DNA of 61,616 nt, the filler included, from Nemertoderma westbladi (taxonomy: Eukaryota; Animalia; Xenacoelomorpha): NCBI GenBank assembly GCA_032718475.1. It is 3 parts of 3 records of this genome, joined end to end, with 100 filler letters (N's around TTAATTAATTAA, not from the genome) between each part and the next. Parts side by side here need not be neighbours in the genome. Positions count along the whole stretch, not along the records: positions 1 to 23,172 come from JAUCBJ010003359.1; 2 more parts are not named here. One strand, written 5' to 3'. The notes beneath the pieces were generated by a model. The model saw only the letters and a list, made by a program, of their open reading frames with translations, was not told the origin of the DNA and did not search any database. Each line of letters starts with the position of its first letter. The stretch's first letter is position 1. Positions 1-35,900 of the stretch are shown piece by piece. Made by a program: the position numbers and the translations under genes.

Positions 1-746
1 TGTGTCATCTCCTTAGGTTCAGTTTGATCATAGGATATCCAGTAAAATGGTAGGCTTGCGAGCCTTCCGCCGAACTCCTCGATCTCGCCTTTCTCGTATG
101 CTTTGTACGCCCTATAGAGGCTCAAAGCTTCCCGTTTCTCTTGTGTCGACTTATTAGACTCATCCGCTATCATACTATAGACTTCTGGTTCGACTAATTT
201 GGGTTCGTAAATATCAATTTCGCCTGCGTTCGGTCCACTCATCTTAAACGAATGGTACGGATTCATCAAAGGGTATCCGCCTTCTTGGTAACGCAGACTT
301 TGGTGGTATGAACATCGTGCTAATATCGGCTCGAGGTTCTCCGAGTTCAAGTGCATAGAAATCGCATTGTCTTGCTCACGCATACATCCTCCACATTTGT
401 AAAACAGTTTATAAATGGAGAACGTGTCCTTTGTCTCTGGATCTGCTCCTCGAGCGCGTCTATAAAGATGCATTCCATCGAATTCGTCCCTGGCTGCAGG
501 CAAGGGTTCGCTCGCCGTCAAATATTGCAGCGTATGATATAATCGGCGTATCTCCGTGTCTGGATCCTCGCAAATGTCACTGGCATCGCATAATGCATCG
601 TAGGGATACAACGCATTGAACTCCGCGCATAACTCCTGCACTCTTTTGTTATAAGCATCCAATTGGATCTGCCTTGGATTTAGCGAGCTTGGCTGTACTC
701 CTAGCCATACTCTCCACTCCAAACACATTAAAGTTTTTGGCTCCAT
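1..746 (-). CDS. Extra ORF downstream of the BEL integrase, open to the window edge (>=248 aa), function unknown
   Basis: Hand translation from ATG at 746 (MEPKTLMCLEWRVWLG...YKCGGCMRE...ARCSYH...GGRLASLPFYW...) has no stop before base 1, so the ORF track omits it. A candidate splice acceptor lies at 863-864. Confidence 0.6.
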   Translation of the reverse strand, partial: MEPKTLMCLEWRVWLGVQPSSLNPRQIQLDAYNKRVQELCAEFNALYPYDALCDASDICEDPDTEIRRLYHTLQYLTASEPLPAARDEFDGMHLYRRARGADPETKDTFSIYKLFYKCGGCMREQDNAISMHLNSENLEPILARCSYHQSLRYQEGGYPLMNPYHSFKMSGPNAGEIDIYEPKLVEPEVYSMIADESNKSTQEKREALSLYRAYKAYEKGEIEEFGGRLASLPFYWISYDQTEPKEMT

Positions 747-1559
747 AACGATTAAACGGTGCCTGGTGCTCCTGTTCCTGCGTAAATCCCTGACGTAACT
801 CCTTATAAATCTTCTCCGCCATCATATACGCGTATATATGGTTACATATCGTTACGTTTCTACTAGATGAAGCACAAAATAGAGGTTAGATATGAGGAGA
901 CATAGAGTTTGTCGGCTTTTGGCTCAACTTTGCTCTAAAACCCCTACCCATTTGCCTAATGACTTCGGGTTTCGCGTGATTTTGCACTGGCTCCTAATCC
1001 AAAAAATGTGCCGATAAAAAACGAATTCCGGGTAAACTAGCCACGAGTCTAAAATACTCACCTTTTAATTTCCCAAACTATGTCCCAAAGAAAATAGTGC
1101 AGTCGAGAATTAATTTGGTCTAAGATAATAGTAGACACGACTACGTAGAACAAGGCCGATTTTCTTTTCCAAAAAAAATTATCGGTAGGCTTGCAAGCCT
1201 TCCATCCGCTCTTGTCCTCCCCAATTTTAATTTTTATCTAGCTGTATTCTAGAATTCGCATTCACTGGAGAATCATTTTTCTTAAATTTAAATCCAACCA
1301 AATGGATTTGTCTAATAATTTTTGAAAATTGTCTCATTTGTGTGTTCCAAGTGGAATTCCATTCCTACTGTACACACAATCCCGCTCCTATGTGATACAT
1401 AAGGGTAATACCCTCCATGTTCACATATAAAGACAATGGAATTCCACCGCTGTCTCTATCTACAGTGAAGAGGAATACAAATGCACATACAGTAATACAA
1501 AATACTAAATTACTAAAATACGGTAAGGCTATGTGGCGGCCATCAAGGGTCCCACATCT

Positions 1560-3124
1560 TTATTTACTAAGATTGGGTGGAGATTTGTAGTCTCCTGTCT
1601 CGTTTTTAGTCTCCTCAAGAAGCACGAGATGTTGTACAGGCCTATCTACGGTACGTCCGTCAATAGTCCGTACAGTAACTGTCCTTACTACATCAGATGT
1701 AGGGTGCGTGGTCAAAATGACTCCAGTCAGCCAAAACCGTCTTTTCAGATTGGTTTTAGCCAGTAAAACATGGTCACCTTCTCTCAAACTTCGGGTATTA
1801 AGATACCAAGAGGTTCTGGTCGAAATAGAGGGCAAATAGAATTCCCCGAATTTGTTGGCTAGCAACTGAGTGATTTTCCAAGCTTTGTTGCCGTATCCGT
1901 CGCTATCGACAGGTACCGAAGTGGGCAACAATGTCGTCGGCGCCTGCATAAGCAGGTGCGCTGGTGTCAAGGCAAACTGTGAGACGCTGTTGTCTGGGAT
2001 CAAAGCGATCGGTCTAGTATTCAAAACTGCTTCGATTTCTATTAACAACATCGTCAGTTGGTCGTCTGTCAATATCCGTTGCGTAGGTATTACTTTCTCC
2101 ATAGCCGTCTTAATTGAGCCAATCAGCCTTTCCCAAACGCCGCCTCTCCACGGACTGTCGGAAGTGTTAAAGTTCCAAACAATACGGTGAGGACGTAGTT
2201 CCTCGGAAATCTGGTTTTGGTCCAACTTCTTTAAAGCTCTGGTGATTTCGTTCCGTGTACCCACAAAGATAGTCCCTTGGTTGCAATAAATGGATTTAAC
2301 CAATCCACGTCTAGCGATAAATCGCCGTAAGGCTAGGATAAAGGCGTTGGTGGTCAAGTCTGTCGCACGGTCAATATGGACAGCTCTGCTGGCCATGCAA
2401 GTGAAGATCAATCCCCAACGTTTTACCTGTACCCTTCCGCGTTTTGCGATTATGGGTCCAAAACAGTCTATCCCTGTCTCAGTGAAAGGGGGTCTAAAAG
2501 CCTGTAATCTCGCTAGTGGTAGTTCACTCATTTCTTGGTGTCCTATCCTCGCGTGCACCTTCTTACAAATCATACAGTTCCGTGTTACCGAACTTAATGC
2601 CTTCTAGGCCTAATCAGTACAAACCGCGAGCGTAAGTGTGATAGAGAGTGGTGCCTACCTATGTGTTTGAATCGTACATGTGCATCCAGTATCATAGCGT
2701 GCTGTAACTCATGGTGTTGTGGTATGATGATAGGATACCTAAAGTCAAGTGCAAAGTCAATGTTTTGGAGTCTGGACTTGTGACAAAGTAGGCCCCTATA
2801 GATTATCGGACTCCAACTCAAAATCGGTGAAGAATTGATCTGTTTACCCTGATTGATCGCTGTGAACTCTCGTGCGAAATATCGCAATTGATAATGACGA
2901 ATAATATCAACTTCATAAAGACCAACTTCCTCTAAGGTAAGTCTTCTAGGAAGGTCGCATTTGCCTCTGGCAGATTGTCTCAAACGTTTGAGCCATGCTA
3001 ACTTGCGGCACGCGTCAGTCCATGATCTAGTTAGGTTTACTATCCTGTCAACGTAAGTGTTAGTGACATCATCAGGTAAGGAATAGTTGAAATGTGGATA
3101 CTTGTTCGGACTTGGTAGGCCCAC
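1560..3124 (-). pseudogene. pol: BEL integrase (HHCC, DDE core, C-terminal domain), frameshifted
   Basis: AHVRFKHIG...C-x2-C split by a frameshift near 2580; PPFTETGIDCFGP, LIFTCMASRAVH, FIARRG, WERLIGSIK, EIEAVLNTRP, RPVQHLVLLE. The second catalytic D position reads N (CNQG). Confidence 0.92.
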
Positions 3125-3479
3125 GGGCCTTCCGGTGAGTGTCTCCCTTTGTACAATGGGTTTGTCTGAGTCCTCAAGTAATTTCGACGGTCTTTACGAT
3201 TATCTTTACCGTCCGCACTCAGTGAATTAACTGGCAGTAACGGTTTCAACTCCACAGTATTAGTGCATTCCTGTGAGCTCGTAAGCTTCCTAACCTTAGT
3301 CACACATTTACTCGTAGACGGTAAATCAAGTATTTTCCTTGAGCGGAGTGCGATTGCTGTCGCCACACCTTCGTCCAAAGAAGTCAAATTTGGTAAGTTG
3401 ACAATCGCTAATGGGTGTGTACTAGTCCGCTCCAATGGATTCATTGTGTCCTTGCAGTACACGTCGTTTCTTTCCAATG

Positions 3480-3880
3480 GGTCGTCTAATGGAAAGTCTA
3501 GTAGACAGTCTGGTGAGGCGCCTGGCGAACAGTCTGGTGAGACATCTGGTAAGACATAGCGCGGAACTTCCGACAAAATGTCCTGTCATCTGTCCCAAAG
3601 AAAGTCTGGCGTAGCTTCTGTCAGAAAGTCTGGTCTAAAGTCTAGTGGACAGTCTGTCGAGATGTTCGGTGGGAAGTCTGGCGAGACGTCCGGTAGACAA
3701 TCTGTCGAGTGTTCCATAAAACAGTCTGGTGAATAATCCGGAGAACAATCTGGTGTCATTTCTGGCGAATAATCTGGCGAGAATCCTGGTGAACAATCTG
3801 GCGAAACGTTTGGTGAAACGTCTGGTCGAGAGTCTAGTGAGATGTCTGGCGTAATGTCAGGTCTAACGTCCAGGTCATCA
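3480..3880 (-). repeat. Degenerate 12-bp tandem repeat encoding PD-x-S tetrapeptides
   Basis: PDVSPNVSPDCSPGFSPDYS...; TCTGG recurs about every 12 bp on the + strand. Confidence 0.8.
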
Positions 3881-4179
3881 GATTTCATCCATCCTCGTTT
3901 CCTCTTGACCTTAGCATTGGCTTTCGCTTTGGACTTGACAACAGTGTCGATTTTTATCTCGGCACCTTCCGGTATGGTATTAGTTGTCGTGTCGAATAAC
4001 AGTGGCCATTCGTCTGATGGTTGTTGTAGGAAATCGGGTCCTCTAAACCAAAAGGATTTATTGTCCGGTCTACAAAAGTCAATAGGTGACATCCCCCGTG
4101 ATGCTATGTCAGCTGGGTTCAGCTTCCCTGGACAGTGACGCCAATCTTGTTTGAGCAAGAAGTTTGAGCAGTCAGTCAA
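3586..4179 (-). pseudogene. pol: BEL RNase H C-terminal remnant
   Basis: WRHCPGKLNPADIASRG...FWFRGPDFL...WP motif typical of BEL/Pao. Confidence 0.85.
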
Positions 4180-4507
4180 GCGCTGCTTGCACTGCGCTAT
4201 GGTCCTCGTCCATGTCTTCGTCCGCTGCGGTGGCTAGTGTCAATGTGTCTGGTAGGCTTGCAAGCCTTCCGGTGTCACTAGTCGGCGTCAAAAAGTTATG
4301 AGGCGGTTTGACAACCTTCTGATCTGTCGGTAGGCTTGCAAGCCTTCCAAGATCAACAACCAGTGTCGAAGCCTGGTGGGTGGGGTCAATGACCTTCAGA
4401 TTTTTCGGTAGGCTCGCAAGCCTTCCAAACCCCTTGTTCATCGAGTCATCCACAGCAACAACCCTTTGGTCTTCAGTAGTCAATACAACCTGGTTTACTG
4501 CAAGTAG

Positions 4508-5710
4508 TTATAAGTCAGAGGTCCGTGTGATCGTGTCCAGATCAGTTACGTCAGTATCGGTTACGTCAGCGTTAGCGACGCAAGTCTGTCGTAGTGCAGT
4601 CTGTACAATTGTTCCACAGGAGTATGAAGGATAATTATCTATCGTAGTAGTCAATAAACTACACGTACTCAAAACGTCGTCCTCCTGGTCACTTACCTCT
4701 AGTGAATGCACTGGTGCTCTAGTATACCAACCTATGGGAGTTCTACATGCGTAGGGGTTGCCTGCTTTAATGACAGATGGGCGTGTCTCCCATACCTGAT
4801 GTAAGTTAAACTGGTCTGCCCCAATCAACATCGCGATTGAGCGATAGTTAACAGGACATTCCAGTATTCCAAGGTGTCGGAAATACTTACGATCTTCCGG
4901 TGATTGCTCTGGCATAGGGCCGAGCAAGTTACTAAAGTCCTTCGTGGCTGCAAAGGTCAAATTTCTTACCGGAAGTAATGAGCACTCCTCCTTGCTGTGT
5001 TCCGCTTTGGAAAGAAGAGTGTCTAAGGTTAATTTTACTCTCGTCACAGGAATCACTCTCTTACCATGCATGCTGCTTACAGTATACTGAGCAGTCTTAC
5101 CTTTACTCATGTCCGTAACTACGTCGGCTACTTGTTCGTCGACGTAACTATGTGATGAAGCAGAGTCTAAGATAGCGTATATACGCTTGCTCCCTCGGGT
5201 TCCGGTAATCTTTATAGGAATCACGCTAAACCCTTTCAATTGGTTCTGTGTGAGGAGTGTTATCGATGGTTGTTCCTGAGGAGGAAGATGACACTTTTTA
5301 CGTGCATGCGGGACGTAAAAAGTGTCATCTTCCTCCTCATCCTCGTCCGATGATTGATCCATACAATCAGTATAGAACGTACGAATCTCGCGTGGCGCAT
5401 GCTCCTTATAAAGTGCATCGCATCTAGCCACTTTATCTGGATTCTCTCGTCGAAAGCGTTTGGTCGGAGTATGACTATTTGTTTGGAGTAACGTGTTGTG
5501 GTTACGTCCACATAGAGGACATGTATCGTCGCTCGGGCAATCCTTCCAGACGTGTCCAGGCTTGGTACATCTCAAACAAGAATCCAACGATCGAATTTGG
5601 AGTCTTCTTTCTTCAACTCCCAACTCTCTAAAAGCGCGACATCCATGTAGTTTATGTCCGCTGTGGTTTCTGCCGTTCCGCTCGCAATATGAGCATCCCA
5701 CAAAGTCCAC
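4508..5710 (-). pseudogene. BEL Gag zinc knuckles plus aspartic protease
   Basis: CSYC..H..C, CLRCTKPGHVWKDC, CPLCGRNHNTLL; protease AILDSASSHSY; MLIGAD; RTPIGW. Confidence 0.9.
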
Positions 5711-6001
5711 CGGTAACTGTTGTCATGGCTGCTTGGTGCCGATAGGCGTCAGAACTTTAGAAGTTTTCGTTGGGGTGGCATAAGTCACGGCTTTCGCGTT
5801 CGTCGGAAATGGTTTGGTCCGATTCGGCGCAGCAATAGCTATTCCTTCTGCCGCTATATAGTGATCAGTGTAGTTTGATCGAGTCTCAACCACGGCCTCT
5901 CGCGAAATCAGTTGGTAGACGTCGGTAAGGTTTAATAGCCCGCCAGCCTCTTCACGCTGATACTCAATACATCGCCATTCTTGTCGTAATCGATGATGGA
6001 G

Positions 6002-9000
6002 TCGACCGATTATCCTAATTAGAACTGTCGGTGCGTTAGCATACTTGAGTTGTCCAATGAACCGTAAAGTCCCTATAGCGTTCTTAATTTCGTCTAAGAG
6101 TCGTAGAAGATCGATCGGTTTCGAAATGCCTCCTCTACAGAGGTCTTCGATAATAGATTTAGCCATGGCTATGTTGCTGCCGTAAATCGAATACAAACGG
6201 TGTACGCCAACTCAAAGGCATTCGGAACTCCAATAAAGGTTTTCGCTAATCGTTTTGGCTCACCAGACAGTACCTGGAGCAAGTAGTTAAACTTCTCCGT
6301 CGCGGTGAAGGCACATTTAGCGATCTGGGACTCTACGTAGTCTACCAGCATACGCTAGTGCTTTGCATTGCCAGAGAACTTCGGTGGTTATTGTGCCGGT
6401 AATCCATGTCTGGCCGCAAACTTCGCAATCTCGCTAACTAAATCCAACTGTCCACGTCCCTGTTTGGTTAGTCGTCCAGTCATTCCCTTCCGCGCGTCAT
6501 CCGCCGGTAGGAAATATTAACGGGATCTTCTTCTCGATGGTTCGGAGTTTGTCTAGTCTCCTGTTCTCTCCTTGGTGGTCGATGTTGTCTAGGTCGTTCT
6601 ACTTCCACACTGGTCCGTGATCTATCCGACGATGGAGCTTCGAGTCGCTCTTCTATCTGAGCTAGTTGATCCGTGGTCGTATTATTTTGGCGAGTCTGTT
6701 AGTGCTAATCGTCTCAGTCGGTTGTAACACAGGTTTCTGGACAGGTGTTTCTCGTGGAGGATTGTCGATGTACTGCTTCATAGATCTCTCCTCTCGTTTG
6801 TAATCATCCGCCGCTCCAGTACTGAATATTTCTCTCTCCGTTGACTCCGAGTCACTGGATGAGTTGCTGTCGTCCGGATAAGGTGGTTGACGGGTATGCG
6901 TCTGGCGTATTATTCTCGTCAGTCGTGTCTGTTTTCGTTTGACGTCCTCGGTTCTTCGTCGTTCGGTAGGCTCGCAAGCCTTCCACGAAGTCATAGGTCT
7001 CGTTAAACAGTGTGTTAAAGGTCGAATAAACATATCAGGTTTTGTAGTCGGTCTGTAAATGACTGGGTTCGCGCAGCACGTTACAGGTTTAACTGCTAAC
7101 GGCTTACTTACCTGCTTAACTGTCATAAATACAGGTTCCTCTCTTCCTACAAGTAGACTACGACTTACTGTAGGTGGACTATTTATTTTACCTTCTAAAA
7201 TTGGTGACGATGTCGCTCTAGGTTGCGGTATTTCTGTCACAACAAACCTGTCACCTAGCTTTGCGCGTACAGGTAATATTTCCTTCGGTTTCGTAATTAA
7301 AACCAGTTTTATCGGAGTTGTAGGTTTGAGCATAGGAATCACTTGGGGAAAATGTTTACAGTAATCCTCGACGAACTCCTCTCCTCGATTTATTGCTCCC
7401 ACACTTCCAATTCTCGATTTGCCTTTGAATCCCGCGATATCGAGTCTCCATGCGGTCTAGGGCAGACAAATCATGTCTAGCTCGAGACCTTATAGATCTG
7501 TCTCTCGCGTCGAGTTTGAGGTCTTCTTGTGCGTTCGCTGTGGCATGCGCGTTAGATGCTGCTTTCTTCCATGCTAATTCAGCTGCATTTACTGCTGCCT
7601 GTCGTGCTATCTTGTCAGCTGCCGCCTGTCGTGTTAACTCGTCTGCTGCTGCCGCCGCAGCCGCTTCTTGCGATAAGTCCTCCTCCAGTCTCCGCATCTC
7701 CGATGCTTCGAACTCAGCTTGAGCCTGGAGTTTCGCAAATTTCGCTAAGTCTTCTCGTCGCTGTCTTTCTCCTTCTGCTGCAATCTGCGCCAATTGTCAT
7801 TGCGTTTCTTCCTCGGCGACCTGTTGCCGGCGTGCGACTTCCTGTTGTTGCTGAGTAATTGCAGACGCTGTCCTACTAATGTCGCCAATGTCGCTCCGCA
7901 CACTAACGAACAATCTTTCCAGTGGTGGAATTTGGTAGGCTCGCGAGACTTCCGTAGTAAGAACTTCCGTCGTCCCTCGCGGTTCAACTTCCGGTTCTTC
8001 GATCGGTACGCCGTTTCTACAAAGAAAATTGGTGAGCGTTTCTAACCTCCCGTCCAGGCCGTATAGTTCTTCTTCCTCTTCGGGTTGCAACAATGCGTCC
8101 GAAACTGACTCACCTAGCAGTTGGTCGAACTGCTCCTGTTGAGCCATTCGTATTACGGACTTAAACTGGATGAGGCTTTCCCTTGCACTTACCAACTTAT
8201 CTATTATCTTTACTTGAGTAAAGTTGTTACCACGCAACTCTGCAAGTTCGTGTAAACCTTTAAGTTTATCTACGGAAGCATGTATCCTACTTTCTATCCT
8301 TACCTGTAAGGTGTAGAACTCGTATCTCAACATCGGGGCGGTTAACTCGCGTAAAAAGCGAAAACCTTCTCTGAAGTTTCGTGTTATCTGGGCCATGTGT
8401 CCCCCTATACTTCTAATAACATTTTCTTGGCTTCCCGCCAAGCTTACCATGTCTGGTTCCCACGATCTGGTCTGCAGGACGGTAAGGAAATCTTCGATTC
8501 TGCCGTCGCCACGCGTTGCGGCTTCCGGTATTTCGTTCGGGGTACCGGCGACGCACGCGGTGTGTGACATCGGTGGAATCTCGACCGATTATCCTAATTA
8601 GAACTGTCGGTGCGTTAGCATACTTGAGTTGTCCAATGAACCGTAAAGTCCCTATAGCGTTCTTAATTTCGTCTAAGAGTCGTAGAAGATCGATCGGTTT
8701 CGAAATGCCTCCTCTACAGAGGTCTTCGATAATAGATTTAGCCATGGCTATGTTGCCGCCGTAAATCGAATACAAACGGTGTACGCCAACTCAAAGGCAT
8801 TCGGAACTCCAATAAAGGTTTTCGCTAATCGTTTTGGCTCACCAGACAGTACCTGGAGCAAGTAGTTAAACTTCTCCGTCGCGGTGAAGGCACATTTAGC
8901 GATCTGGGACTCTACGTAGTCTACCAGCATACGCTAGTGCTTTGCATTGCCAGAGAACTTCGGTGGTTATTGTGCCGGTAATCCATGTCTGGCCGCAAAC

Positions 9001-11161
9001 TTCGCAATCTCGCTAACTAAATCCAACTGTCCACGTCCCTGTTTGGTTAGTCGTCCAGTCATTCCCTTCCGCGCGTCATCCGCCGGTAGGAAATATTAAC
9101 GGGATCTTCTTCTCGATGGTTCGGAGTTTGTCTAGTCTCCTGTTCTCTCCTTGGTGGTCGATGTTGTCTAGGTCGTTCTACTTCCACACTGGTCCGTGAT
9201 CTATCCGACGATGGAGCTTCGAGTCGCTCTTCTATCTGAGCTAGTTGATCCGTGGTCGTATTATTTTGGCGAGTCTGTTAGTGCTAATCGTCTCAGTCGG
9301 TTGTAACACAGGTTTCTGGACAGGTGTTTCTCGTGGAGGATTGTCGATGTACTGCTTCATAGATCTCTCCTCTCGTTTGTAATCATCCGCCGCTCCAGTA
9401 CTGAATATTTCTCTCTCCGTTGACTCCGAGTCACTGGATGAGTTGCTGTCGTCCGGATAAGGTGGTTGACGGGTATGCGTCTGGCGTATTATTCTCGTCA
9501 GTCGTGTCTGTTTTCGTTTGACGTCCTCGGTTCTTCGTCGTTCGGTAGGCTCGCAAGCCTTCCACGAAGTCATAGGTCTCGTTAAACAGTGTGTTAAAGG
9601 TCGAATAAACATATCAGGTTTTGTAGTCGGTCTGTAAATGACTGGGTTCGCGCAGCACGTTACAGGTTTAACTGCTAACGGCTTACTTACCTGCTTAACT
9701 GTCATAAATACAGGTTCCTCTCTTCCTACAAGTAGACTACGACTTACTGTAGGTGGACTATTTATTTTACCTTCTAAAATTGGTGACGATGTCGCTCTAG
9801 GTTGCGGTATTTCTGTCACAACAAACCTGTCACCTAGCTTTGCGCGTACAGGTAATATTTCCTTCGGTTTCGTAATTAAAACCGGTTTTATCGGAGTTGT
9901 AGGTTTGAGCATAGGAATCACTTGGGGAAAATGTTTACAGTAATCCTCGACGAACTCCTCTCCTCGAGTTATTGCTCCCACATTTCCTTTCTCGATTTGC
10001 CTTTGAATCCCGCGATATCGAGTCTCCATGCGGTCTAGGGCAGACAAATCATGTCTAGCTCGAGACCTTATAGATCTGTCTCTCGCGTCGAGTTCGAGGT
10101 CTTCTTGTGCGTTCGCTGTGGCATGCGCGTTAGATGCTGCTTTCTTCCATGCTAATTCAGCTGCATTTACTGCTGCCTGTCGTGCTATCTTGTCAGCTGC
10201 CGCCTGTCGTGTTAACTCGTCTGCTGCTGCCGCCGCAGCCGCTTCTTGCGCTAAGTCCTCCTCCAGTCTCCGCATCTCCGATGCTTCGAACTCAGCTTGA
10301 GCCTGGAGTTTCGCAAATTTCGCTAAGTCTTCTCGTCGCTGTCTTTCTCCTTCTGCTGCAATCTGCGCCAATTGTCATTGCGTTTCTTCCTCGGCGACCT
10401 GTTGCCGGCGTGCGACTTCCTGTTGTTGCTGAGTAATTGCAGACGCTGTCCTACTAACGTCGCCAATGTCGCTCCGCACACTAACGAACAATCTTTCCAG
10501 TGGTGGAATTTGGTAGGCTCGCGAGACTTCCGTAGTAAGAACTTCCGTCGTCCCTCGCGGTTCAACTTCCGGTTCTTCGATCGGTACGCCGTTTCTACAA
10601 AGAAAATTGGTGAGCGTTTCTAACCTCCCGTCCAGGCCGTATAGTTCTTCTTCCTCTTCGGGTTGCAACAATGCATCCGAAACTGACTCACCTAGCAGTT
10701 GGTCGAACTGCTCCTGTTGAGCCATTCGTATTACGGACTTAAACTGGATGAGGCTTTCCCTTGCACTTACCAACTTATCTATTATCTTTACTTGAGTAAA
10801 GTTGTTACCACGCAACTCTGCAAGTTCGTGTAAACCTTTAAGTTTATCTACGGAAGCATGTATCCTACTTTCTATCCTTACCTGTAAGGTGTAGAACTCG
10901 TATCTCAACATCGGGGCGGTTAACTCGCGTAAAAAGCGAAAACCTTCTCTGAAGTTTCGTGTTATCTGGGCCATGTGTCCCCCTATACTTCTAATAACAT
11001 TTTCTTGGCTTCCCGCCAAGCTTACCATGTCTGGTTCCCACGATCTGGTCTGCAGGACGGTAAGGAAATCTTCGATTCTGCCGTCGCCACGCGTTGCGGC
11101 TTCCGGTATTTCGTTCGGGGTACCGGCGACGCACGCGGTGTGTGACATCGGTGGAATCTCG
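6002..11161. repeat. Tandem duplication of a ~2579-bp gag segment (6002-8580 and 8581-11158)
   Basis: Near-identical ORF pairs offset by 2578-2579 bp; 3-bp microhomology TCG at the junction. Confidence 0.97.
8581..11148 (-). pseudogene. gag: BEL gag 5' region (coiled coil, DUF1759-like), interrupted
   Basis: ORFs of 257 aa and 376 aa separated by a single TGA; downstream EKFNYLLQVLSGEPKRL motif typical of BEL Gag. Confidence 0.75.
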
Positions 11162-11287
11162 GTTTCTCCTTCTCGGTTTGTCTACTGTCGATCTCCCCGG
11201 GTCGCACGAGTCATAGTCGGTAGGTGGGTATCGAGTCGAATGTGGTGTATCACTCATGTCTTATTAAATACGTCAAGTACGGGTAAT

Positions 11288-11463
11288 AAAATGTCAAAGT
11301 ATCAAAATGTGAAAATGTCGAAATGTCAAAATGTCAAACTTACCTTGGTATATATATATCATATATATACCCTAACCAGTACAAATAAATGTGAGAATGT
11401 CAAAATGTCGAACTTACCTTGGTATATATATATCAAATATATACCCTAACCGGTACAAATAAA
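11288..11463. repeat. AAATGTC repeats plus two ~74-bp units in the BEL 5' leader, each with a minus-strand splice donor
   Basis: ACTTACCTTG (reverse complement CAAG|GTAAGT) at 11338 and 11412, each followed by a GGTATATAT...ATATATACC hairpin. Confidence 0.75.
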
Positions 11464-12091
11464 ATCAAAATATATAATATAATATGTAATAATCTAGCCT
11501 ACCGGCTAAATTTGTACGAATAAGTGAGATAACGGTATACGCTACCAAAATGTAGATCAACAAGTACAAATAATAGGCAAAACAGCAACGTCTAACGGGA
11601 AATAAGTACCAACAACACTACTAATTAGACAGTGGAACCAACAAATTTTGAGTACTACTGTGCTCTTAAGTTTGAACGACACGAGTCGTAAAACTTACGC
11701 CCCTTTGATCTTCCAGTTGTGCAAATTCCCAAATACAAACCGGACGCGGGTCATTCCGTTTTCGGCGTCGCGGACGAATTTTGTGTCTCCCAAACTTTGC
11801 GAAAATCGGTCTAATCCCTCGAAGCGGTCCAGAAATGAGTCCTTGAGTCCTGAAAAGTCGAAGGTGAGAGTTTTACTTCTACTCTACGAAAAATCTTCCT
11901 AGGTACCGATACAACTTAGTCTTTAAACCCTATGTACCTTTTCAAGTACCGAAAAGTAACACCACACACACACGGCGTAAAACAAATTGCTATAAACTAA
12001 CTATTAGCTAGTCAAATATTAAATACGAAAACTACTAGCTACCCTAAAGGCCTACTGAAGCAACGTACAAAATGTTGCCTTACAGAAAGGA

Positions 12092-12355
12092 CAAATACTA
12101 TTCTACTAAATATTTAATAAGAATATTCCGACTGAAATGCACTTTTCAGCGCGTACAAATACTATTCAGACTCTATTTAGAATATTTAATCAAATATTCT
12201 GACTGAAAAGTGCATGCACTTTTCAGCGTGTACAAATACTATTCAGACTCTATTTAGAATATTTAATAAAATATTCTGACTAAAAAGTGCATGCACTTTT
12301 CAGCACGTACAAATACTATTCAGACTCTATTTAGAATATTTAATAAAATATTCCC
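12092..12355. repeat. 77-bp tandem repeat (~3.5 copies) with internal palindromes
   Basis: Units start at 12156, 12233 and 12310; contains the palindrome CTGAAAAGTGCATGCACTTTTCAG. Confidence 0.85.
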
Positions 12356-14034
12356 TACTTTGAGATCCTTCTTGGTAAGAGGTATCCTACGACCTACAAA
12401 TCTACTAATATGAAGCAATAGAATATTCCCTACTGAAAAGTCCAGTAGTATACCGCTTACCGGATCCTAGTAATGATGTATCTTACCGTAAGATCTAGTA
12501 GTGTGTACGGGCTCGTACAGTATCTGACAACAAATCCCAGTCCAGGGTGTCTAAATAAACATACAAATACGCGAACAACTACTGGCGAGGAGCAGAGCCT
12601 GGTGTTTATTCTAAGTACGTGAGCGAGTCAAATGCCCGACGAACTAGACAAAAGGATGCCTGTCCTCTAACCGGTGACGCAGATGTACAGTTTACGGTTA
12701 CAGACCAAACTCACGGGAAAACAATCCCCGCGCAGCGAATCCTAACTATCGCTAACGGACCTAAATACCGTAACTTGACGTGGTGTGATTTATATGGTTT
12801 ATATACGAGCTAGTGGATTAACAGACTAGCGTAACAATACTGACCTGTACTAAATCAGTCTAAAGGGGGTCGTACCTAATGTAACAATACTGTCGGCTAC
12901 AGAAACAACAGTCTAATAAGTAAATACTCTTTTTTTGCTATAACTAAATATCAGATCGTAAATTTACAAACTACGAATAGTAAATTACAAAATAGATTCT
13001 GCCTGAAAGTAACCTAAAGTAAGCTACAACTAGTAGAGCTCTAAGGGTACATATGTTTTAGGGCGTGAGTGTGTGGGTGTGTTACAAATAAAACAATTTT
13101 GTGTACTCCATTGTGTAAGGTTTTTATGATTTTCTGACCGAAACAATACCGTGCGCTAGCTACGAAAATAAGCTAGTTGCGCTCTGTAGAACTTTATACT
13201 TACAAATGACATCAAAGCTCTCTCCTTCCTATCCACAACTCAACAGCGCAATTACGGTGTTAGTAACTACACCCGTGATCGGCACAAATTCCAGATTCTG
13301 GTTGTAAGATAAGAAATAGGGGTTAATTGCTACCGTACGTTAGCTGATCTGGTATACAATTTGATTCTAGAATTTTGTTGCTGCGGTGGTTAGCAGCAAT
13401 ACCTATCAGTACGTGGCATGGTGCGGTAGGATATTAATAAACCTCCCTAGGCCAAGCGAGTGCCGGTAGCAGAAATACTCCTTGCCTGATCAAATAACTT
13501 GGGTTCAGGCAGGGGGGGGGGGTACTAAATGTATAAACTACAAAATGAAACCAGTACTGAACTGTCAGTATCGCAAGTCACTAAATTATGGAACGTATGC
13601 TGTCTGTACCTAATTTGTACTTGCGTACTGACGAACAGCAATGGTTCACACCTGTAGGGAATACAGGTTAATCCGGGGACTTGTAGTACAGGTTCCTGTT
13701 TGTAGCCTAGCTATTTGATCCTAAATTTTGTGGCGTCCCAGGACGGCGTCACGCTTACCCTGATCTATAGGTCTTACGGCGGGCAATGGTGTCAAACAAA
13801 GTCTTACCTTCCTCTGAATCGGGCGCTGTATGGCAAAGGTGGGGCATTTCGAAGGGGCGAAGGGGGTGCGCGGGCTAATCTAATGTGGGCGCTAGCATGT
13901 TGCGGACATCTTCCCTGCGTTGCTGATGGCCTAACGGTCTAGGCTGCCATCTTCCAAATGCTTGGCTGTCCCAGTGGTTGGCAAAGATAAATATACATGT
14001 TCAAAGTTTACAACTATATTTAAGTAATTTACAA

Positions 14035-14295
14035 AAGATTTATTTACCAAATTTACATAATTCTCAGAAGGGTGATAACTAAAATATTATCCTAATGATA
14101 CTAATGAGAGTGTTAACTAGGTAGTAGATAGAGATAACCGAAGGCAAACCAGCCCTTATATAGCAAATCTGGGACATAGAATCCGCTAGAACCTTCCAGA
14201 GCATTCCATGGCCTCACATTGGAGCAATAAGATGTTCTATGCCCTATGATTGGCCCAACTCATCGTTCCACATGTTGTACGCACCTCATTGGCTT
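14035..14295 (-). promoter_or_regulatory. Candidate LTR promoter of BEL-1
   Basis: Minus strand: three CCAAT boxes (~14293, 14253, 14222), TATATAA (~14157-14163), then AATAAA (~14040), in U3-R order. No second LTR or PBS was found to confirm it. Confidence 0.45.
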
Positions 14296-14341
14296 ATCTA
14301 ATTAAATCAAAGCGAAAATAAATAGCCCAAAATACAAATTT

Positions 14342-14405
14342 CCCGACCGGGATTCGAACTCATAACCTACTTGTAATGTAACCAACGCCTTAACCATCTG
14401 ACCAC
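14342..14405 (-). ncRNA. tRNA-derived sequence (SINE head or tRNA pseudogene)
   Basis: Minus strand GTGGTCAGATGGTTAAGGCG (A box) ... GAGTTCGAATCCCGG (B box); no convincing anticodon or acceptor stem. Confidence 0.55.
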
Positions 14406-15539
14406 TGCGCTAATATAGTTACCTATGGGTTTATATGTACCAATATGAATAGGCATATTACATTACTGTAATTTAATCAAAATGCGTCGGATTTTAGAAA
14501 GTTTTTACGTTAAGCTACAAATGCTACCTTATAGTGAAATAATCCATCAGGCACCGTAAGTATCTACTTCAATGATTTAGTCTCATTAAATGCAATGGTG
14601 GTATTTGCATTCGCTGAGATAATATGGATGGATAGTGCGATTTAGTATTTCTGAAGGCAAAAGGTTTTCTTCTTACTGGTAGATATTTCTTATTAGCAAT
14701 GTATCTTGGTCAGCCTCCAGCAAGTTATGATCTTAGCTAGGCATTATCTCACCTTCGCATATAACATAAACAATATTCTAATATACAATACTGTTTATGT
14801 CACATGCTGTGAGAAGGCCTTACGTTCAATATGTGCATGCCTTCAGGTAGGATTCTTTATTCAACATGCGTGGACAATAAAAATTAATTCTATAATATTA
14901 ATATATTCATAGAAAAATCATGAACCTTTTTTACTTACTCTCCACAGGTTATTTTGATGCTGTTCACGTTATTCTCCATTTGCCTTAATTTCAATGCGAA
15001 CGAGTATGTGTCGCCATTTGTGTGGAAAGTTCGTCCCTTTAATTATAAATGTAAGATAGAAAATAAATTAATATTATTTGCATCTTAATTTGCATCTGGT
15101 ATGGTGGATATCAGAGCACAGATTTTCAAGATGAATTAAATGTCAGACATTACTTATAGGCTGTGTAGGCTTTGTTAAACAGGATTCCATAATCATTTAT
15201 CCCAGATCAATCATATCAAAGATCCATTATTATTATTATAATTATTTATCCCAGATCAATCATATCAAAGATCCATTATTATTATAGATCAAAATATAGA
15301 ACTATAGATATTATATAGATAACAAAATAATAAAAGATAAGCTGTGTTTTTCGAGATAATTGTTCCATATACCGGGTGTTCCATAATGATTCCCCACCCC
15401 CCCCCCCCTGGCCAGCCAAAACTGCCAGACATGCACCTTAGTGTAATATATCATTCGAAAGATAAATTAATTCTGAGCTTGCGTGCAAAAATTTAGGGTT
15501 CAATACAAAAGTATAAAAATTTTATGGGCTATTCTTTAA

Positions 15540-24661: not shown

Positions 24662-25286
24662 CCACAACCACAGCCACAGCCACAGCCACAAGCCACAGCC
24701 ACAACCACAGCCACAGCCACAGCCACAACCACAGCCACAGCCACAACCACAGCCACAGCCACAACCACAGCCACAGCCACAACCACAGCCACAGCCACAA
24801 CCACAGCCACAACCACAGCCACAGCCACAGCCACAGCCACAGCCACAGCCACAACCACAGCCACAGCCACAGCCACAGCCACAACCACAGCCACAGCCAC
24901 AGCCACAGCCACAACCACAGCCACAGCCACAGACCACAGCCACAGCCACAACCACAGCCACAGCCACAACCACAACCACAGCCCACCACAGCCACAACCA
25001 CAGCCACAACCACAGCCACAGCCACACCACAGCCACAGCCACAACCACAGCCACAACCACAGCCACAACCACAGCCACAGCCACAGCCACAACCACAGCC
25101 ACAGCCACAACCACAGCCACAGCCACAGCCACAGCCACAGCCACAACCACAGCCACAGCCACAGCCACAACCACAGCCACAGCCACAACCACAGCCACAG
25201 CCACAGCCACAGCCACAACCACAGCCACAGCCACAACCACAGCCACAGCCACAGCCACAGCCACAACCACAGCCACAACCACAGCC
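24662..25286. repeat. (CCACAG/CCACAA)n hexamer array, left arm
   Basis: About 625 bp, two interspersed hexamer variants. Confidence 0.97.
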
Positions 25287-25398: not shown

Positions 25399-25537
25399 CC
25401 CCCATTCACCGCATTCTCATTCATTCTCTAATTTTTATTTTTAAAAGTTTTATTTATTTTCATAAAAGTTTTATTTATTTAAAATTTTGTAAAATCATTC
25501 AGCGAAAATTCATAATATCAATTGACATTGCTATATA

Positions 25538-26293
25538 ATGCCTAGCTATGAAAGATGTTTGGTTTGTAATAAAGAAATGAGACGAGACAGTATATCCCGT
25601 CATATGAGTATACATAGAAAGGAAGGTGTAATGGAACCATTACCAAAGAAATTAAAAAATAATGATGATATTTTTAGTGAAGAAGAAAACAAAAAGAGAG
25701 TTGAGAGTGATTTTCTAGAGATTAAACAAATGATGAAACATAAATTCGAGAAAATCATGAATATTTTGAAGAATATACAGAAACAGCCACATAGTGAAAA
25801 GGACGATGAGAGTGAGGAAGAGAATAAATCAGAGGAAAGTGAGAATGATGAAACGGAGAGTGAGATAGAGAAAGAAGAAAATGAGAGTGGTGGTGAAGAA
25901 AATGAGAGCGAGAAAGAAGTCGAGGAACATGAAAGTGGTGAGGATAATGACTCAGATAATGAGGAGATATTAAGACATGTATTAGGAAATAAAAATAAAT
26001 TGCAGAAGATAATTAGACAATTGAATGAAATGCAGAAACATTCGCATAAGGAGAGTGATAATGATGGAAATGAGAGTGATGGGGATGAATCGGAGGAGAG
26101 TAGCGATGACAGTGAGGAAGAATCAGAGGAGAGTAGCGATGACAGTGAGGAAGCATCAGAGGAGAATGACAATGAAAATGGACAGAAAATCAGAGTAGGG
26201 AATGGAAAAGTTATATCTCCAGCAACTGTTGTATATCCTAGGATTATGAACAGTAACAGTCGTACAGTTAATGTGAGACAGTGCAGAAGATAA
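25538..26293 (+). CDS. 251-aa protein: N-terminal C2H2 finger, NLS-like motif, long acidic Ser/Glu/Asp tracts
   Basis: CLVCNKEMRRDSISRHMSIH; PLPKKLK; ATG start, upstream TATA, AT-rich 3' region with ATTAAA. Confidence 0.7.
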   Translation: MPSYERCLVCNKEMRRDSISRHMSIHRKEGVMEPLPKKLKNNDDIFSEEENKKRVESDFLEIKQMMKHKFEKIMNILKNIQKQPHSEKDDESEEENKSEESENDETESEIEKEENESGGEENESEKEVEEHESGEDNDSDNEEILRHVLGNKNKLQKIIRQLNEMQKHSHKESDNDGNESDGDESEESSDDSEEESEESSDDSEEASEENDNENGQKIRVGNGKVISPATVVYPRIMNSNSRTVNVRQCRR

Positions 26294-26704: not shown

Positions 26705-27222
26705 GGCTGTGGTTGTGGCTGTGGTTGTGGCTGTGGTTGTGGCTGTGGCTGTGGTTGTGGTTGTGGCTGTGGCTGTGGCTGTGGTTGTGGCTGTGGTTGT
26801 GGCTGTGGCTGTGGCTGTGGCTGTGGTTGTGGCTGTGGTTGTGGCTGTGGTTGTGGCTGTGGCTGTGGTTGTGGCTGTGGCTGTGGCTGTGGTTGTGGCT
26901 GTGGTTGTGGCTGTGGTTGTGGCTGTGGTTGTGGCTGTGGCTGTGGCTGTGGCTGTGGTTGTGGCTGTGGCTGTGGTTGTGGCTGTGGCTGTGGCTGTGG
27001 TTGTGGCTGTGGCTGTGGCTGTGGCTGTGGTTGTGGCTGTGGTTGTGGCTGTGGCTGTGGCTGTGGCTGTGGTTGTGGCTGTGGTTGTGGCTGTGGCTGT
27101 GGTTGTGGCTGTGGTTGTGGCTGTGGCTGTGGCTGTGGCTGTGGCTGTGGTTGTGGCTGTGGCTGTGGCTGTGGCTGTGGTTGTGGCTGTGGCTGTGGTT
27201 GTGGATGTGGCTGTGGTTGTGG
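26705..27222. repeat. (GGCTGT/GGTTGT)n hexamer array, right arm
   Basis: About 518 bp; reverse complement of the left array but with different length and variant order. Confidence 0.97.
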
Positions 27223-29119: not shown

Positions 29120-31580
29120 CTAACACAATCCTTCCGCTATTAATTTCTTAGCTCTCTCCGCAGCTTTTCTTTTAGGTCGTTGACATTCACGGTCATTAGT
29201 GGTATGTTTTGAAATGCGGGAATCAGAAGAGTTAGTATTCTTATTCATCACAGAGTTTGATTCAATACATCTCTCGTTTAATTCCAATGGAAACAACATG
29301 TTAATTGGTCGAGTTACTCGACTTACTTTTACCTTCCTTTTATTCTCGATAATGAATCTCACAACAGCGCTTCTAACTTCTTCATCATTACTGGTGTTCA
29401 AAGAATCAATAACTCCCAGTTTCCAACGTCCTCTTGGCCCATCATCCTTTATCAAAACAATATCTCCAATTTGTGGTTTATCTACCAACTGTCCCTTTAT
29501 ACCCTTATGGTCAGTTTGTGTTCGCTCTTGGAGACTATGTAAATATTCGTCATAGAAAGCTTTCCAGGCAGAATCAATATGTTCCTTTCCATGAGTCCAT
29601 GCACTAATCAAACTTTCCTTAAGTGTCGGAATGGCTGGTTGATAATTTGAATCTCTTAATACATCTTCATAGGATCCACATTCTAAAAATGCACCTAAGA
29701 AATCATTTGGACATAAAGTATACCCTGAGTCTATATCATTTCCTACATATAGCAGAGGTCGACTATTTATTATAGGTTCAATTTCTAATAACAGGCATTC
29801 AAGTTGCCTTATAGTCAAGCACGTCTTTCGTAGTAATTTCTTTAAGATCTTTTTTATCAAGCCAATAAGCCTTTCGTAAAAGCCACCCATCCAAGGGGAC
29901 ATTTCAGGGATAAATCGCCACTTTATGCCGTCACTTAACACAGCTTCCAATACAGATCGTGCCAGTTTAAATTGAGAAGCATTATCAGATATGAACATTG
30001 ATATCTTCCCTGATCTCGCTTTAAATCGCCTAAAACAAAATAAAAACTCTTCAGTTCCTTGGTCTCGAACTAATTCCAATCTAACACCTCGAGTAGCCAT
30101 GCATGTAAACAGACAAATCCAAATCTTTTGGACTTCGTTTGCATCGTTTCTTCCGAATAGTGGTCCCATATAATCCAATCCAGAATATTCAAAGGGAAGT
30201 GATCTCATAATACGCTCCTTTGGCAATGGAGCTATCGGAGGAAGTTTATATGATTGCCCATCTACCTTTTTACACATTATACATTTCAATAATATTGATC
30301 GAACAACAGATCTTCCATGTATTATCCAAAAATGTCTTCTAACTAAGGCCAAAGTATGTGATACACCAACATGGAAGTTTAATTTATGTACTCTTTCTAC
30401 CAATAATTTTGTAAACCATGATCTTTTCGGGAGTAATATCGGGAAACCATTTAATGGTTCAGCATAAGTGAATCGTCCCCTGCATCGAATAATATCATCA
30501 TCATCAATAAAACAACCTAATGCTCGCTTCAACTCGTTCGTCTCATTATGGTTAATTGCATGTATCATGTCGCCGAAATGTTGAATTTGTATAAGATGTA
30601 TTAGTTTTGTTTCTGCTAATTTAATTTCTTCAGAAACAATACAGTTCATAACAAGATCATTATTTATCTGCAAACGTTTAGATTTTGGAGTAATGAACCG
30701 TAAAATGTAAACCATTACCCGAATCGCATTTGACAGATTTGAGTATTTGTTTCCAAATTCTTCTAAGAATTTCCATTCAGAGTTCTCTCTATATTCTTGT
30801 TTTTTCTGAGGATGGGCAAGTAATGACATACTGTAAAACTCCTTTGCCGGTTTTGACGCCTCATCACATAGTTTAATATACTCGGGTGTTATTGGAGGAA
30901 GTTTTGTTGACTCCCACTCATTCGGGTCACATGAAAGCCACTCTGGCCCCTTCCACCAAATCTTATTGTCAATCAATTCGTCAATGGAACAACCTCGACT
31001 TGCAATATCTGAAGGGTTGTCCTTTGAAATAACATATCTGAATTCGTAACCAGTATTTCGAATATCATGTAGTCGTCTATCTACAAATGCCCCTATTTGC
31101 TTCTTAGATTTCAGCCAATAAAGTACACATAGTGAGTCAGAAAATATAATAGTATCAACAATCTGGATATTTCGAAGTTGATTTTTGCAGAAAGTTACAG
31201 CATTTGATGTTATCCACATGCCAAGAAGTTCAAGTCTTGGAATTGATGGTTGCTGTTTTGTTGATTGGTGTTTCTTTGGTTCTATCAGTCGACTTTTAGC
31301 AAACACCAACAGTGGTTCATAACATAATTTGTTACATTCATTTGCATATTCTTTCACCAGAAATACACATGTTGCATAAGCCTGGGCAGAAGCATCTCCA
31401 AATCCATATAATCGGTAGTTATTGGCAACAGCAGCATAGAAACTTCTATTTAGTTTTACCGCATTGATATTAACTATACTATCTAGTAATTTATTCCACT
31501 CTACTGACTGTGCAATCGAAAATCGTGCGTCCCAATCAAGTTTTTCTTTCCATAACCTTTGTAGAAACAGTTTTGTTTTT
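29120..31580 (-). pseudogene. pol: BEL RNase H plus integrase (745-aa ORF with a frameshifted upstream part)
   Basis: GFGDASAQAY, SIPRLELLG, FSDSLCVLYW, NPSDIASRG, GLDYMGP, FTCMATRGV, SDNASQF, GGFYERL. Confidence 0.93.
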
Positions 31581-31662
31581 GCTGTTAATCAACTGTTATT
31601 TCCGTAAGGTTAGCAGTAAAATTTTTTCACATTTTTATGCATTGTTACAACCGTTATTATAT

Positions 31663-33886: not shown

Positions 33887-34225
33887 CGCCGGCGTCGATG
33901 TGAGCAACAAAAGTGCAGACTGAAAACTGCACTAGTTTGCTCCAGTTACTCTAAATACTCTTACAAGAACCACTCCAAGAAAACAAGAGTTAAATCAATC
34001 ACCTGCGAGTCTTGTGGTCCGCAGCAGTAATTACAGTATGAATATGTAATAATATATATGTATATTATATTATTATTATATAATAATGAAAATATATTAT
34101 AATAATATAATATAATAATAATAAATAATATATTATATATTATTTATAATTTATTTTTTATTATATATTATTATATATATACTATATATTATATATACTA
34201 TATATACACTATATATATAATTATA

Positions 34226-35165
34226 TACCCACCCGGGTGGTCTGTCGCCAGTACACGGTGCCAGGCGGCAACGTTGGGCGCAAAGTGGTGGACATGCTCG
34301 CAAGCGAGGTGGAGAAGTTGACTGAGGGGGTCTACCCCTCGGAGAGACCCCTTTGTTTCCTTACCACGATGTTCCAGCGGGACCCTGATGTGGTGAAGGG
34401 GGCGGACATCCGGCGGACCATTCTGCGTCGACTCGGGATGTGGGAACGGGAGGAGTTCCGTCAGCTCATAGCTGAGGCGGAGCGCTGCAGCGCGAGATTC
34501 GCCCACTCCCTTCGCTCAGCCCCACCTAACATGGCCAGGACCTACAACCGGAAGATCCTGGCCGGGCAGAACCAGTCCACGGTCCGCCTCGTAACGGACC
34601 GGGACAGCGGTGGAGTGCTGGACCCCAAATCCCAGGCTGAGGGTCAGCCGGTCGGCGTAACCGTTCGCGACATCCTCGCCGCGAAACACCCGGCTAAGTT
34701 GGACGTCTCGCCAGATGCATTCAACCCGTGCGACGAGTTGCCCCCCTTCGAAGCGGTGGACATTACGGGGCAACTCGTCTTGAAGGAATCGCGGTACCTT
34801 GGTGGTAGCGCCAGGCCCATTGGTGGTGACGCCGAACTGTGGAGTGCCCTCCTCACCCACTACGAGGCGCACAGCTCCCGCCTCCGCGAGGCAGTCGCCG
34901 GGTTGGCTCGATGCCTCGCCAACTCGGAGGTCCCGTGGGGGGAAATCCGGGCGCTCCGAGCGTGCCGCCTCGTTGCTATCGACAAGGAGCCTAGCGTCCG
35001 GCCGATCAGGATCGGTGAAGTTCTGTACCGGCTCACCACAAACTGCCTCACCTCGGCCACTAAAATGGACTTTATAACTGAGTGTGGGGCGGACCAGCTC
35101 TGTGCGGGAGTGAAGGCTGGGATTGAAGGCGCGGTCCACGCGATGTCAGCGATGTTCGAGCAACC
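34226..35165 (+). mobile_element. CRE-like (RLE-type) non-LTR retrotransposon fragment, N-terminal half of RT
   Basis: RLVAIDKEPSVRPIRIGEVLYRL, QLCAGVKAGIEGAVHAM; homologous to the 42713-46921 ORF. Confidence 0.85.
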
Positions 35166-35167
35166 CT

Positions 35168-35900
35168 CCTTGACTCTCAGACGACTGAATGCTGCATTAT
35201 ATATAGGCCATCCATGACCTTTCACAGTATCAAACAACTCATCTATGGGTAATCGAGAATCCCGTTGTACACCAGAATATATCAAAAATCCAATGAATCC
35301 AGTTAACTCTTCCAGTGTAAATGGAGTAAAGGCAGGTGAGTTCCACAAACCCTCTTCATTTGAGTACTTCAGAACCACCGACATCAATGCAACATTGAAC
35401 AACAACTGGAATGCATGTATTGGTTCTACAATATTCAAATCTCGAACATGTCGGGGCAATCCTGAAAAAAATAAAATAAAACAAATTTAGACAATAGGCT
35501 ACTGCTACTGGTAGCCAACAAGTAGGGCATACCTAAATAACTTAAAATTAAAATTATTTGGATTGGATAGATCTTATAGATCTACAGATCTAGATAGCCT
35601 CAACTGATATTATCTGTCAGGCTAGACATCTATAGCCACATCGATCGGGTACAGGCTATATCAGTATATGGTATGCCCACCACAGCTCATACAAACAAAC
35701 TACTACAGCCTACTACTACCTACTACAGTACTACAACAAACAGGCAAACAAACCTGAAGATGAACAGCAAATATTTATCTCACGAGTCTTTCCTGTGGTT
35801 GGAGCCTTACTGGCCCACAAATCAGTCACCACAACTTTCTTATTTACAAGTTTGTGAAAGACGCCAGAAGGTACATGTAGAGGCGGTATTGGTACCGGTA
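35168..35900 (-). pseudogene. piggyBac transposase N-terminal fragment with one intron (35462-35753); upstream limit uncertain
   Basis: Spliced reading W..K.P..GKTREINICCSSSG/LPRH...PIHAFQLLF...TLEELTGFIGFLIYSGV...PIYNAAFSRLR resembles PGBD/DDE_Tnp_1_7; donor G|GTTTGT, acceptor TTTTTTCAG|. Confidence 0.75.

Follow-up and report, generated by a model that had tools for sequence, protein, structure and literature searches.

The window analysed here is a stretch of 61,616 nucleotides (nt) of DNA from Nemertoderma westbladi (GenBank assembly GCA_032718475.1), made of three parts joined end to end, the first of which (positions 1–23,172) comes from JAUCBJ010003359.1. At its start lies, on the minus strand, what is by its sequence a decayed copy of a BEL/Pao-type retrotransposon without reverse transcriptase (RT). 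A 20-nt hairpin motif recurs through this copy in a single orientation; it is real and non-random, and it is very probably under selection as nucleic acid. Along the minus strand, the element consists of a duplicated and broken gag, zinc knuckles and a protease, a linker, a junction, an RNase H tail, the integrase, a gap and a third open reading frame (ORF3). The features of the element, in window coordinates, are as follows.

3–821, minus strand: ORF3, open over 273 codons and cut off by the window edge; a family member by contig depth
49–68, minus strand: hairpin motif in ORF3; frame GRLASLP, loop CGCA
1184–1203, minus strand: hairpin motif with loop UGCA, in the non-coding interval that separates integrase from ORF3
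1563–3193, minus strand: integrase region in two broken frames, with DUF5641 at its end (Pfam match)
3114–3133, minus strand: variant of the hairpin motif, upstream of the integrase core; read as GRPVGLP, with C-G as closing pair and CGUG as loop
3589–4233, minus strand: frame with the apparent last part of RNase H (KLNPADIASRG), then a 12-nt repeat linker; no Pfam match above the cut-off
4156–4167, minus strand: junction lacking RT and the bulk of RNase H, at which other family contigs depart from the window sequence
4251–4426, minus strand: three hairpin motifs (4251, 4329, 4407) in the linker that follows the protease, repeating every 78 nt (26 codons)
4511–5722, minus strand: zinc knuckles and an aspartic-protease-like region (ILDSASS), read by eye; zf-CCHC_2 at E = 0.057, below the cut-off
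6002–11159, minus strand: gag region, tandem 2 × 2.58 kb, with stops and frameshifts; DUF1759 at E = 0.15, below the cut-off
6965–6984, minus strand: hairpin motif with loop UGCG, in gag; read as WKACEPT
7934–7953, minus strand: variant of the hairpin motif, in gag; read as EVSRAY, with loop CGCG and one broken stem pair
9544–9563, minus strand: duplicate of the 6965 motif
10512–10531, minus strand: duplicate of the 7934 motif
10532–14100, minus strand: stretch without motifs that takes in the gag start and the presumed 5' leader; long terminal repeat (LTR) and primer site not located

The integrase region ends in DUF5641 (E = 2e-12) and has 386 homologues, the best 42% identical and the closest of them BEL/Pao polyproteins; PF18701 is present in all 120 of those listed and PF05380 in one. 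The sequence KLNPADIASRG looks like a motif of the RNase H region. Between this tail and the integrase, a degenerate 12-nt repeat (3472–3875) encodes a D-x-S-P-like linker, and insertions occur at 3818 in relatives. In the gag–protease region, which has no homologue at E ≤ 1e-5, the Cys/His clusters and ILDSASS are recognised by eye, and the Pfam scores for DUF1759 and zf-CCHC_2 are sub-threshold. Neither an RT frame nor an RT Pfam match exists between the protease and the integrase in this copy. Because other copies depart from the window sequence at 4156/4167, this absence reads as a deletion in this copy. The two gag units (6002–8580 and 8581–11159) show 12 differences in 2.58 kb; the duplication is recent.

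At the other end of the element, no clear primer binding site is visible by eye in 11100–14500, and the 3' end lies beyond the window. The presumed leader contains 77-nt (12137–12353) and 74-nt (11313–11463) tandem repeats; where two 77-nt units meet, at 12205, the sequence forms a perfect 20-nt palindrome. Further on, at 14080–14430 on the minus strand, a head resembling transfer RNA (tRNA) precedes CCAAT boxes and a TATA-like box, which may together be a short interspersed nuclear element beside an LTR; ARAGORN finds no tRNA there.

In the runs X1 and X2, every one of the 30 bins of the element is covered by contigs, with summed depths of 3,400–75,000, where summed contig depth is not copy number; the runs X2 and X3 represent one sample, which may include the window's own source. 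Since the summed depth is high in both X1 and X2 over all 30 bins, it points to a high-copy family. ORF3 has an open length expected by chance at ~7e-8 for one frame. It has no credible homologue among 1.84 billion representatives, and none in a search restricted to lengths 150–478. The lone match of the 1.84-billion search was rejected, since it is the translation of a tandem repeat and its summed matches are weak, and Atlas matches of 0.89–0.91 serve as leads only. As far as these searches reach, ORF3 is an orphan accessory frame of the high-copy family, placed downstream of the integrase, where env-like genes can also sit.

Distribution and conservation of the hairpin motif

The whole 61.6-kb window was scanned on both strands for the pattern GGTAGGCT-N4-AGCCTTCC with ≤3 mismatches. 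Exact matches lie at 49, 1184, 4251, 4329, 4407, 6965 and 9544, and variants at 7934 and 10512 (one mismatch each) and at 3114 (two mismatches), so that all ten hairpin copies named in the original prediction are recovered. The scan gives 19 strand-matches against 0.31 expected, a number reached by 0 of 100 shuffles; they comprise 10 matches on the plus strand and 9 reverse readings of those same sites. All of them are confined to 49–10531, within the element, and none lies past 10531. Furthermore, a position weight matrix scan and a variable-loop search of the 61.6 kb find no further motif copies, weak copies or half-sites, and a covariance model built from eight sites and run with filters off adds no copy in the same sequence, its best leftover match having E = 0.54.

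The motifs at 9544 and 10512 repeat those at 6965 and 7934 within the 2.58-kb tandem duplication, hence there are eight independent sites rather than ten. The original prediction had also discounted this duplication, which is verified here; its figure of eight becomes six on a cautious count, because the trio with the 78-nt period looks like an old tandem duplication. Over the eight sites, 14 of the 20 motif positions are invariant. The gaps between neighbouring sites are 968, 2558, 78, 78, 1137, 1930 and 1135 nt. The single orientation claimed for the motif holds at every site (p = 0.008 with eight sites, 0.03 with six).

Selection on the nucleic acid itself is indicated first by the reading frames. 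The motif had been described as non-coding in places and otherwise read in two frames; it does occur in non-coding DNA (1184), but in three reading frames, namely GRLASLP or GRPVGLP at five sites, WKACEPT at 6965 and EVSRAY at 7934. Both mismatch A's are invariant in all eight sites, and in five of the seven coding sites both are four-fold silent. Since the silent A's never vary and the arms are kept across frames, protein constraint is ruled out as the explanation. Around the six dispersed sites, the flanking sequences show no relationship (8–19 of 50 positions identical).

The three copies at 4251, 4329 and 4407 are exactly 78 bp apart, as had been noticed earlier, and they offer a direct comparison of motif and spacer. 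The 20-mers are identical at 20/20, 19/20 and 19/20 positions, and the other 58 positions at 21, 17 and 27, which brings spacer identity down to 29–47%. Between units 2 and 3 the spacers agree at 27/58 positions (p = 0.0006), and the remaining pairs give p = 0.056 (21/58) and p = 0.33 (17/58). Because just the 27/58 pair clearly exceeds chance, the array appears to be old, its spacers drifted and its arms not. At spacer-level identity, the 16/16 identity of the arms has a chance of ≤5e-6. The claim of a selected RNA or DNA signal is thus upheld as to selection, by the frames, the drifting spacers and the silent A's; as to its level of action, RNA is only favoured.

The same array was compared within the family by aligning contigs of X1, X2, X3 and X5 to 4130–4470, where 291 positions were considered and a place was called variable at 8% or more. 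Among the 26 variable places, 24 fall in spacers, two in loops and none in the 48 arm and mismatch positions (p = 0.007, uncorrected). Sixteen of the 30 T>C or A>G differences, including both loop differences, stand in CpG context, against a background of 23%, and 18 of the 24 classified contig differences are non-synonymous (from 40 of 1354 rows). A contig from organism B over 4308–4462 spans two hairpins, and all 11 of its differences lie outside the arms. In several low-depth contigs, which are visible only through their hairpin match, the array spacing is kept, the spacers are diverged (22/36 and 27/40 by hand count), and the match resumes on the hairpin. It stands, to judge from these contigs, that the hairpins are a family trait present in other family copies.

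Meanwhile, contigs of X1 and X2 jump back from 6998 to 6958 around the gag hairpin, and one jumps from 7008 back to 6954, 38 letters standing in between. This fits a 93-nt in-frame repeat in relatives and, though seen in few contigs, suggests that the number of motifs grows through local duplication. Such motif-centred tandem repeats, here and in relatives, are also what a neutral, self-propagating micro-repeat would leave behind, if the hairpin stalled reverse transcriptase and template switches copied and homogenised it without benefit. The arms contain no CpG and would hence be spared by decay, and conservation at the family level is statistically weak. This explanation is nevertheless improbable, considering that the 20 nt are sharply kept against the adjacent spacers and that the mismatch is fixed in 8/8 sites. 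Template-switch correction of a quasi-palindrome would tend to remove a mismatch, which counts against a neutral repeat, and neither the RT-deletion junction nor the gag-duplication junction falls at a motif.

RNA or DNA as the level of action

On the element strand, the predicted fold comprises two G-C pairs, the A.A mismatch, five pairs and a 4-nt loop, with an energy of −9.1 kcal/mol; the core stem thus has seven pairs plus the mismatch. The hairpin with an invariant A.A mismatch that had been proposed is reproduced as a prediction for this strand, except that the variant at 7934/10512 breaks one stem pair and folds poorly (−1.9 versus −9.1 kcal/mol). The compensatory change from U-A to C-G at 3114, accompanied by the different loop CGUG, is real and is the one compensatory pair observed. 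In a context of 300 nt, the hairpin forms with a probability of at least 0.85 at five of the eight sites on the element strand versus two of eight on the other strand. The sites at 4251 and 4407 lose the local hairpin in long context, where they presumably pair with each other.

The loops and the bases next to the stem also carry a pattern. All loops fit Y-G-Y-R, and the loop of the 4407 type is UNCG-like on the element strand. The loop is self-complementary, with G.U allowed, in 7/8 sites on the element strand versus 5/8 on the other, the chance share being 36/256. Most contigs show the 4407-type loop at 4251 and 4329 as well, which would widen this strand contrast. The bases flanking the stem are U..G at four sites or C..A at four and never mixed (p = 0.029), and both are isosteric wobbles. 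Taken together, RNA is favoured over DNA, by judgement about twice as probable.

The hairpin may act as a multivalent protein landing pad on the full-length element RNA, serving packaging or export, the reading that we prefer and to which we assign slightly less than an even chance. In-frame tandem duplication would spread hairpin copies into tolerant linkers, as in the 78-nt array here and the 93-nt repeat at the gag site of a relative. After duplication, the spacers would decay and the hairpin would be retained by selection. The stem with its mismatch would be recognised by a putative reader, either the nucleocapsid of Gag or the protein of the orphan ORF3. Through the number of its hairpins, the unspliced genomic RNA would then be favoured for packaging or export. 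Such a counting model fits better than an intron-only mark, because one site lies in ORF3.

Several results weigh against the protein-read RNA signal. Base-pair covariation, for which a covariance check had been proposed, is not significant among the eight sites, as 386 of 500 shuffles reach the observed level. The isolated hairpin folds equally well on both strands (−9.1 kcal/mol; as DNA about −5.5 each). The U.G/C.A flank pattern falls to p = 0.10 with six sites, and each of the two combinations is one CpG-type transition away from a C-G pair. The flank-duplex permutation gives p = 0.004–0.07 for the element strand, but also 0.01–0.22 for the other, and the flank-shuffle test lends extended stems no significance. 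The family test is weakened because many of the differences are this copy's own decay: its p-value becomes 0.03 once CpG sites are excluded, shift tests respecting clustering give 18/291 and 51/291, silent sites alone give p = 0.18, and contigs from other motif sites can raise the depth on the arms. Finally, the presumed 5' leader holds no motif and ORF3 holds one.

The position of the sites bears on the comparison with classical signals. Retroelement packaging signals are usually found in the 5' leader. The motif nearest to the presumed 5' end lies ~650 nt into gag, and because the motif is absent from 10532–14100 (p = 0.05–0.11, the leader limits being uncertain), it is set apart from 5' signals.

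The self-complementary loops raise a second RNA-level possibility, in which near-palindromic hairpins would swap into an extended duplex within the same or with a partner RNA, causing dimerisation or compaction without a reader protein. The computed duplex beats two hairpins by 7.7–19.7 kcal/mol, the loss of the local hairpin at 4251 and 4407 is in keeping with such pairing, and MuLV SL-A/SL-B and Ty3 PAL6 act in this way (PMC5874298, PMC11381356). Yet the energy gain is common to any hairpin with a palindromic loop, and since the loops descend from one motif, their evidence amounts to about one event. The fixed A.A mismatch weakens the duplex and is left unexplained, identical sites would not fix a register, and known dimer signals lie near the 5' end, where no motif occurs. 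This mechanism is distinctly unlikely.

At the DNA level, the motif could be a double-stranded site for a dimeric protein, a host factor or ORF3, bound on the integrated element as an anti-silencing, enhancer or insulator site. A palindromic motif with a fixed 4-nt spacer would suit such a protein, and ORF3 is an orphan accessory frame. VANC motifs likewise have one orientation and spread by tandem repeats (PMC5735166), and the homologous regions (hrs) of baculoviruses, which work at the DNA level, consist of imperfect palindromes scattered in direct repeats (PMC2830988); because hrs are imperfect yet act on DNA, the conserved asymmetry is compatible with a DNA site. Furthermore, the element is not CpG-depleted (observed/expected 1.07 versus 0.66 in the rest of the window), although a young family could explain this. 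CpG decay in this copy reaches two motif loops, and the CpG ratio has no gradient by distance from the motif, whereas VANC-type anti-silencing involves a loss of DNA methylation around it. Seven of the eight sites are coding and most are spaced ~1–2.5 kb apart, whereas VANC needs dense non-coding arrays. On balance, a DNA site is on the unlikely side.

A host-read transport signal of the Egalitarian (Egl)/dynein type, carrying the RNA to germ cells, is highly improbable. The I-factor ILS is among the RNAs bound by Egl, and transport needs two stem-loops per transcript (PMC13186709), and longer stems are possible at some of the present sites. Egl signals, however, are longer and bent, with U-A pairs at two set positions and little common sequence; the motif is short, G+C-rich and sequence-identical, and its extended stems do not reach significance.

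The landing-pad reading can be carried further: the family may barcode its genomic RNA with a repeated exact hairpin that replaces a 5' packaging or export element and is read by ORF3 or Gag, while palindromic loops zip two genomes together, an MS2-like pair born in an animal retrotransposon. In this full form the idea is unlikely. The choice of RNA for packaging or export by LTR retrotransposons has been mapped mainly in the yeast elements Ty1 and Ty3, whose packaging sequences are described as not precisely defined (PMC11381356). With a short, exact and repeated motif, the question of RNA selection can be put directly to the test, using small RNAs and no more than two proteins. Should ORF3 prove to be the partner, it would join the RNA- or DNA-binding proteins as a new member whose target is known, and it might serve for tagging; should the site act on DNA, VANC anti-silencing would gain a candidate counterpart in animals.

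Other features of the window and wider searches

A second BEL/Pao fragment lies at 29123–31588 on the minus strand (Peptidase_A17, integrase, DUF5641). Its integrase is 28% identical to the first, the motif is absent, and no repeated 14-mer family is found in it; of the other control stretches, two of four carry small repeat families. A 30-nt satellite occupies 55102–58895 with 126 copies at 95% identity, and a small inverted repeat, itself imperfect, forms at each junction. An acidic open frame at 25526–26293 is flanked by two long arrays that are built of 6-nt units (CCACAG and GGCTGT; 24662–25286 and 26705–27222) and lie on opposite strands, an arrangement that suggests an inverted-repeat element. 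In addition, long frames with RT-like motifs and without a Pfam match are present at 42713–46930 (minus strand), which holds a 21-nt tandem repeat of 47 copies, and at 34150–35217 (plus strand); these frames resemble CRE-type non-LTR elements.

Beyond the window, viral contigs contain no exact motif and no related locus. Five single exact matches in metagenome contigs are taken as chance, having no second copy and no tblastn likeness to the element; these contigs are G+C-rich with long bacterial-looking frames, and 0.007 matches are expected per Gb. None of nine weak Rfam matches in 1–14000 overlaps the motif or attains the gathering score. The motif resembles the histone 3' stem-loop, but this reading was rated low, as no Rfam model has a match on the motif. 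Bacterial repetitive extragenic palindromes (REP) were also rated low: they carry a GT(A/G)G head before the palindrome, are extragenic and accompany a RAYT gene (PMC2817692), whereas here GTAG (plus strand) lies inside the stem, the sites are mostly coding and the setting is a eukaryotic retroelement. A literature search found no repeated hairpin, nor any cis-acting RNA element, in BEL/Pao, subscription journals and repeat databases being largely outside its coverage.

Comparison with known systems

The motif lacks a defining feature of each of three systems that it otherwise resembles, namely dimer palindromes, VANC motifs and baculovirus hrs. Like MuLV SL-A/SL-B, Ty1 PAL and Ty3 PAL6, it is a self-complementary hairpin for which an extended duplex is possible, as computed here; those signals comprise a single sequence or a few distinct ones close to the 5' end, whereas the motif is one sequence repeated through gag, pol and ORF3, outside the presumed leader (PMC5874298, PMC4974528, PMC11381356). 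In the case of VANC of the Arabidopsis VANDAL elements, the likeness lies in a family-specific motif of one orientation, its spread by tandem duplication and an accessory open frame. However, the VANC motifs are 8–9 bp, non-palindromic, dense and non-coding and belong to a DNA transposon (PMC5735166); only one of the eight sites here is non-coding, and for ORF3 no similarity to any family was detected. Baculovirus hrs are likewise imperfect palindromes in direct repeats at several places of a genome, but they are 30-bp, intergenic, clustered as 2–7 per site and part of a DNA virus (PMC2830988).

For ORF3, a model is offered by CERV of C. elegans Cer1, an extra protein of an LTR element that is needed for export of the genomic RNA; the available text on CERV yields no RNA element, and no sequence link to ORF3 was found, without a direct comparison of CERV with ORF3 (PMC10309623). 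In Ty3, POL contributes to packaging (PMC11381356). Dispersed packaging signals themselves occur in the RNA viruses MS2 and HBV (hepatitis B virus). These viral signals share only a loose loop or bulge motif, whereas the present one is invariant at 14/20 positions and sits in an LTR retrotransposon; in both, many stem-loops with a common recognition feature extend through coding RNA, the fold being predicted here (PMC6281560).

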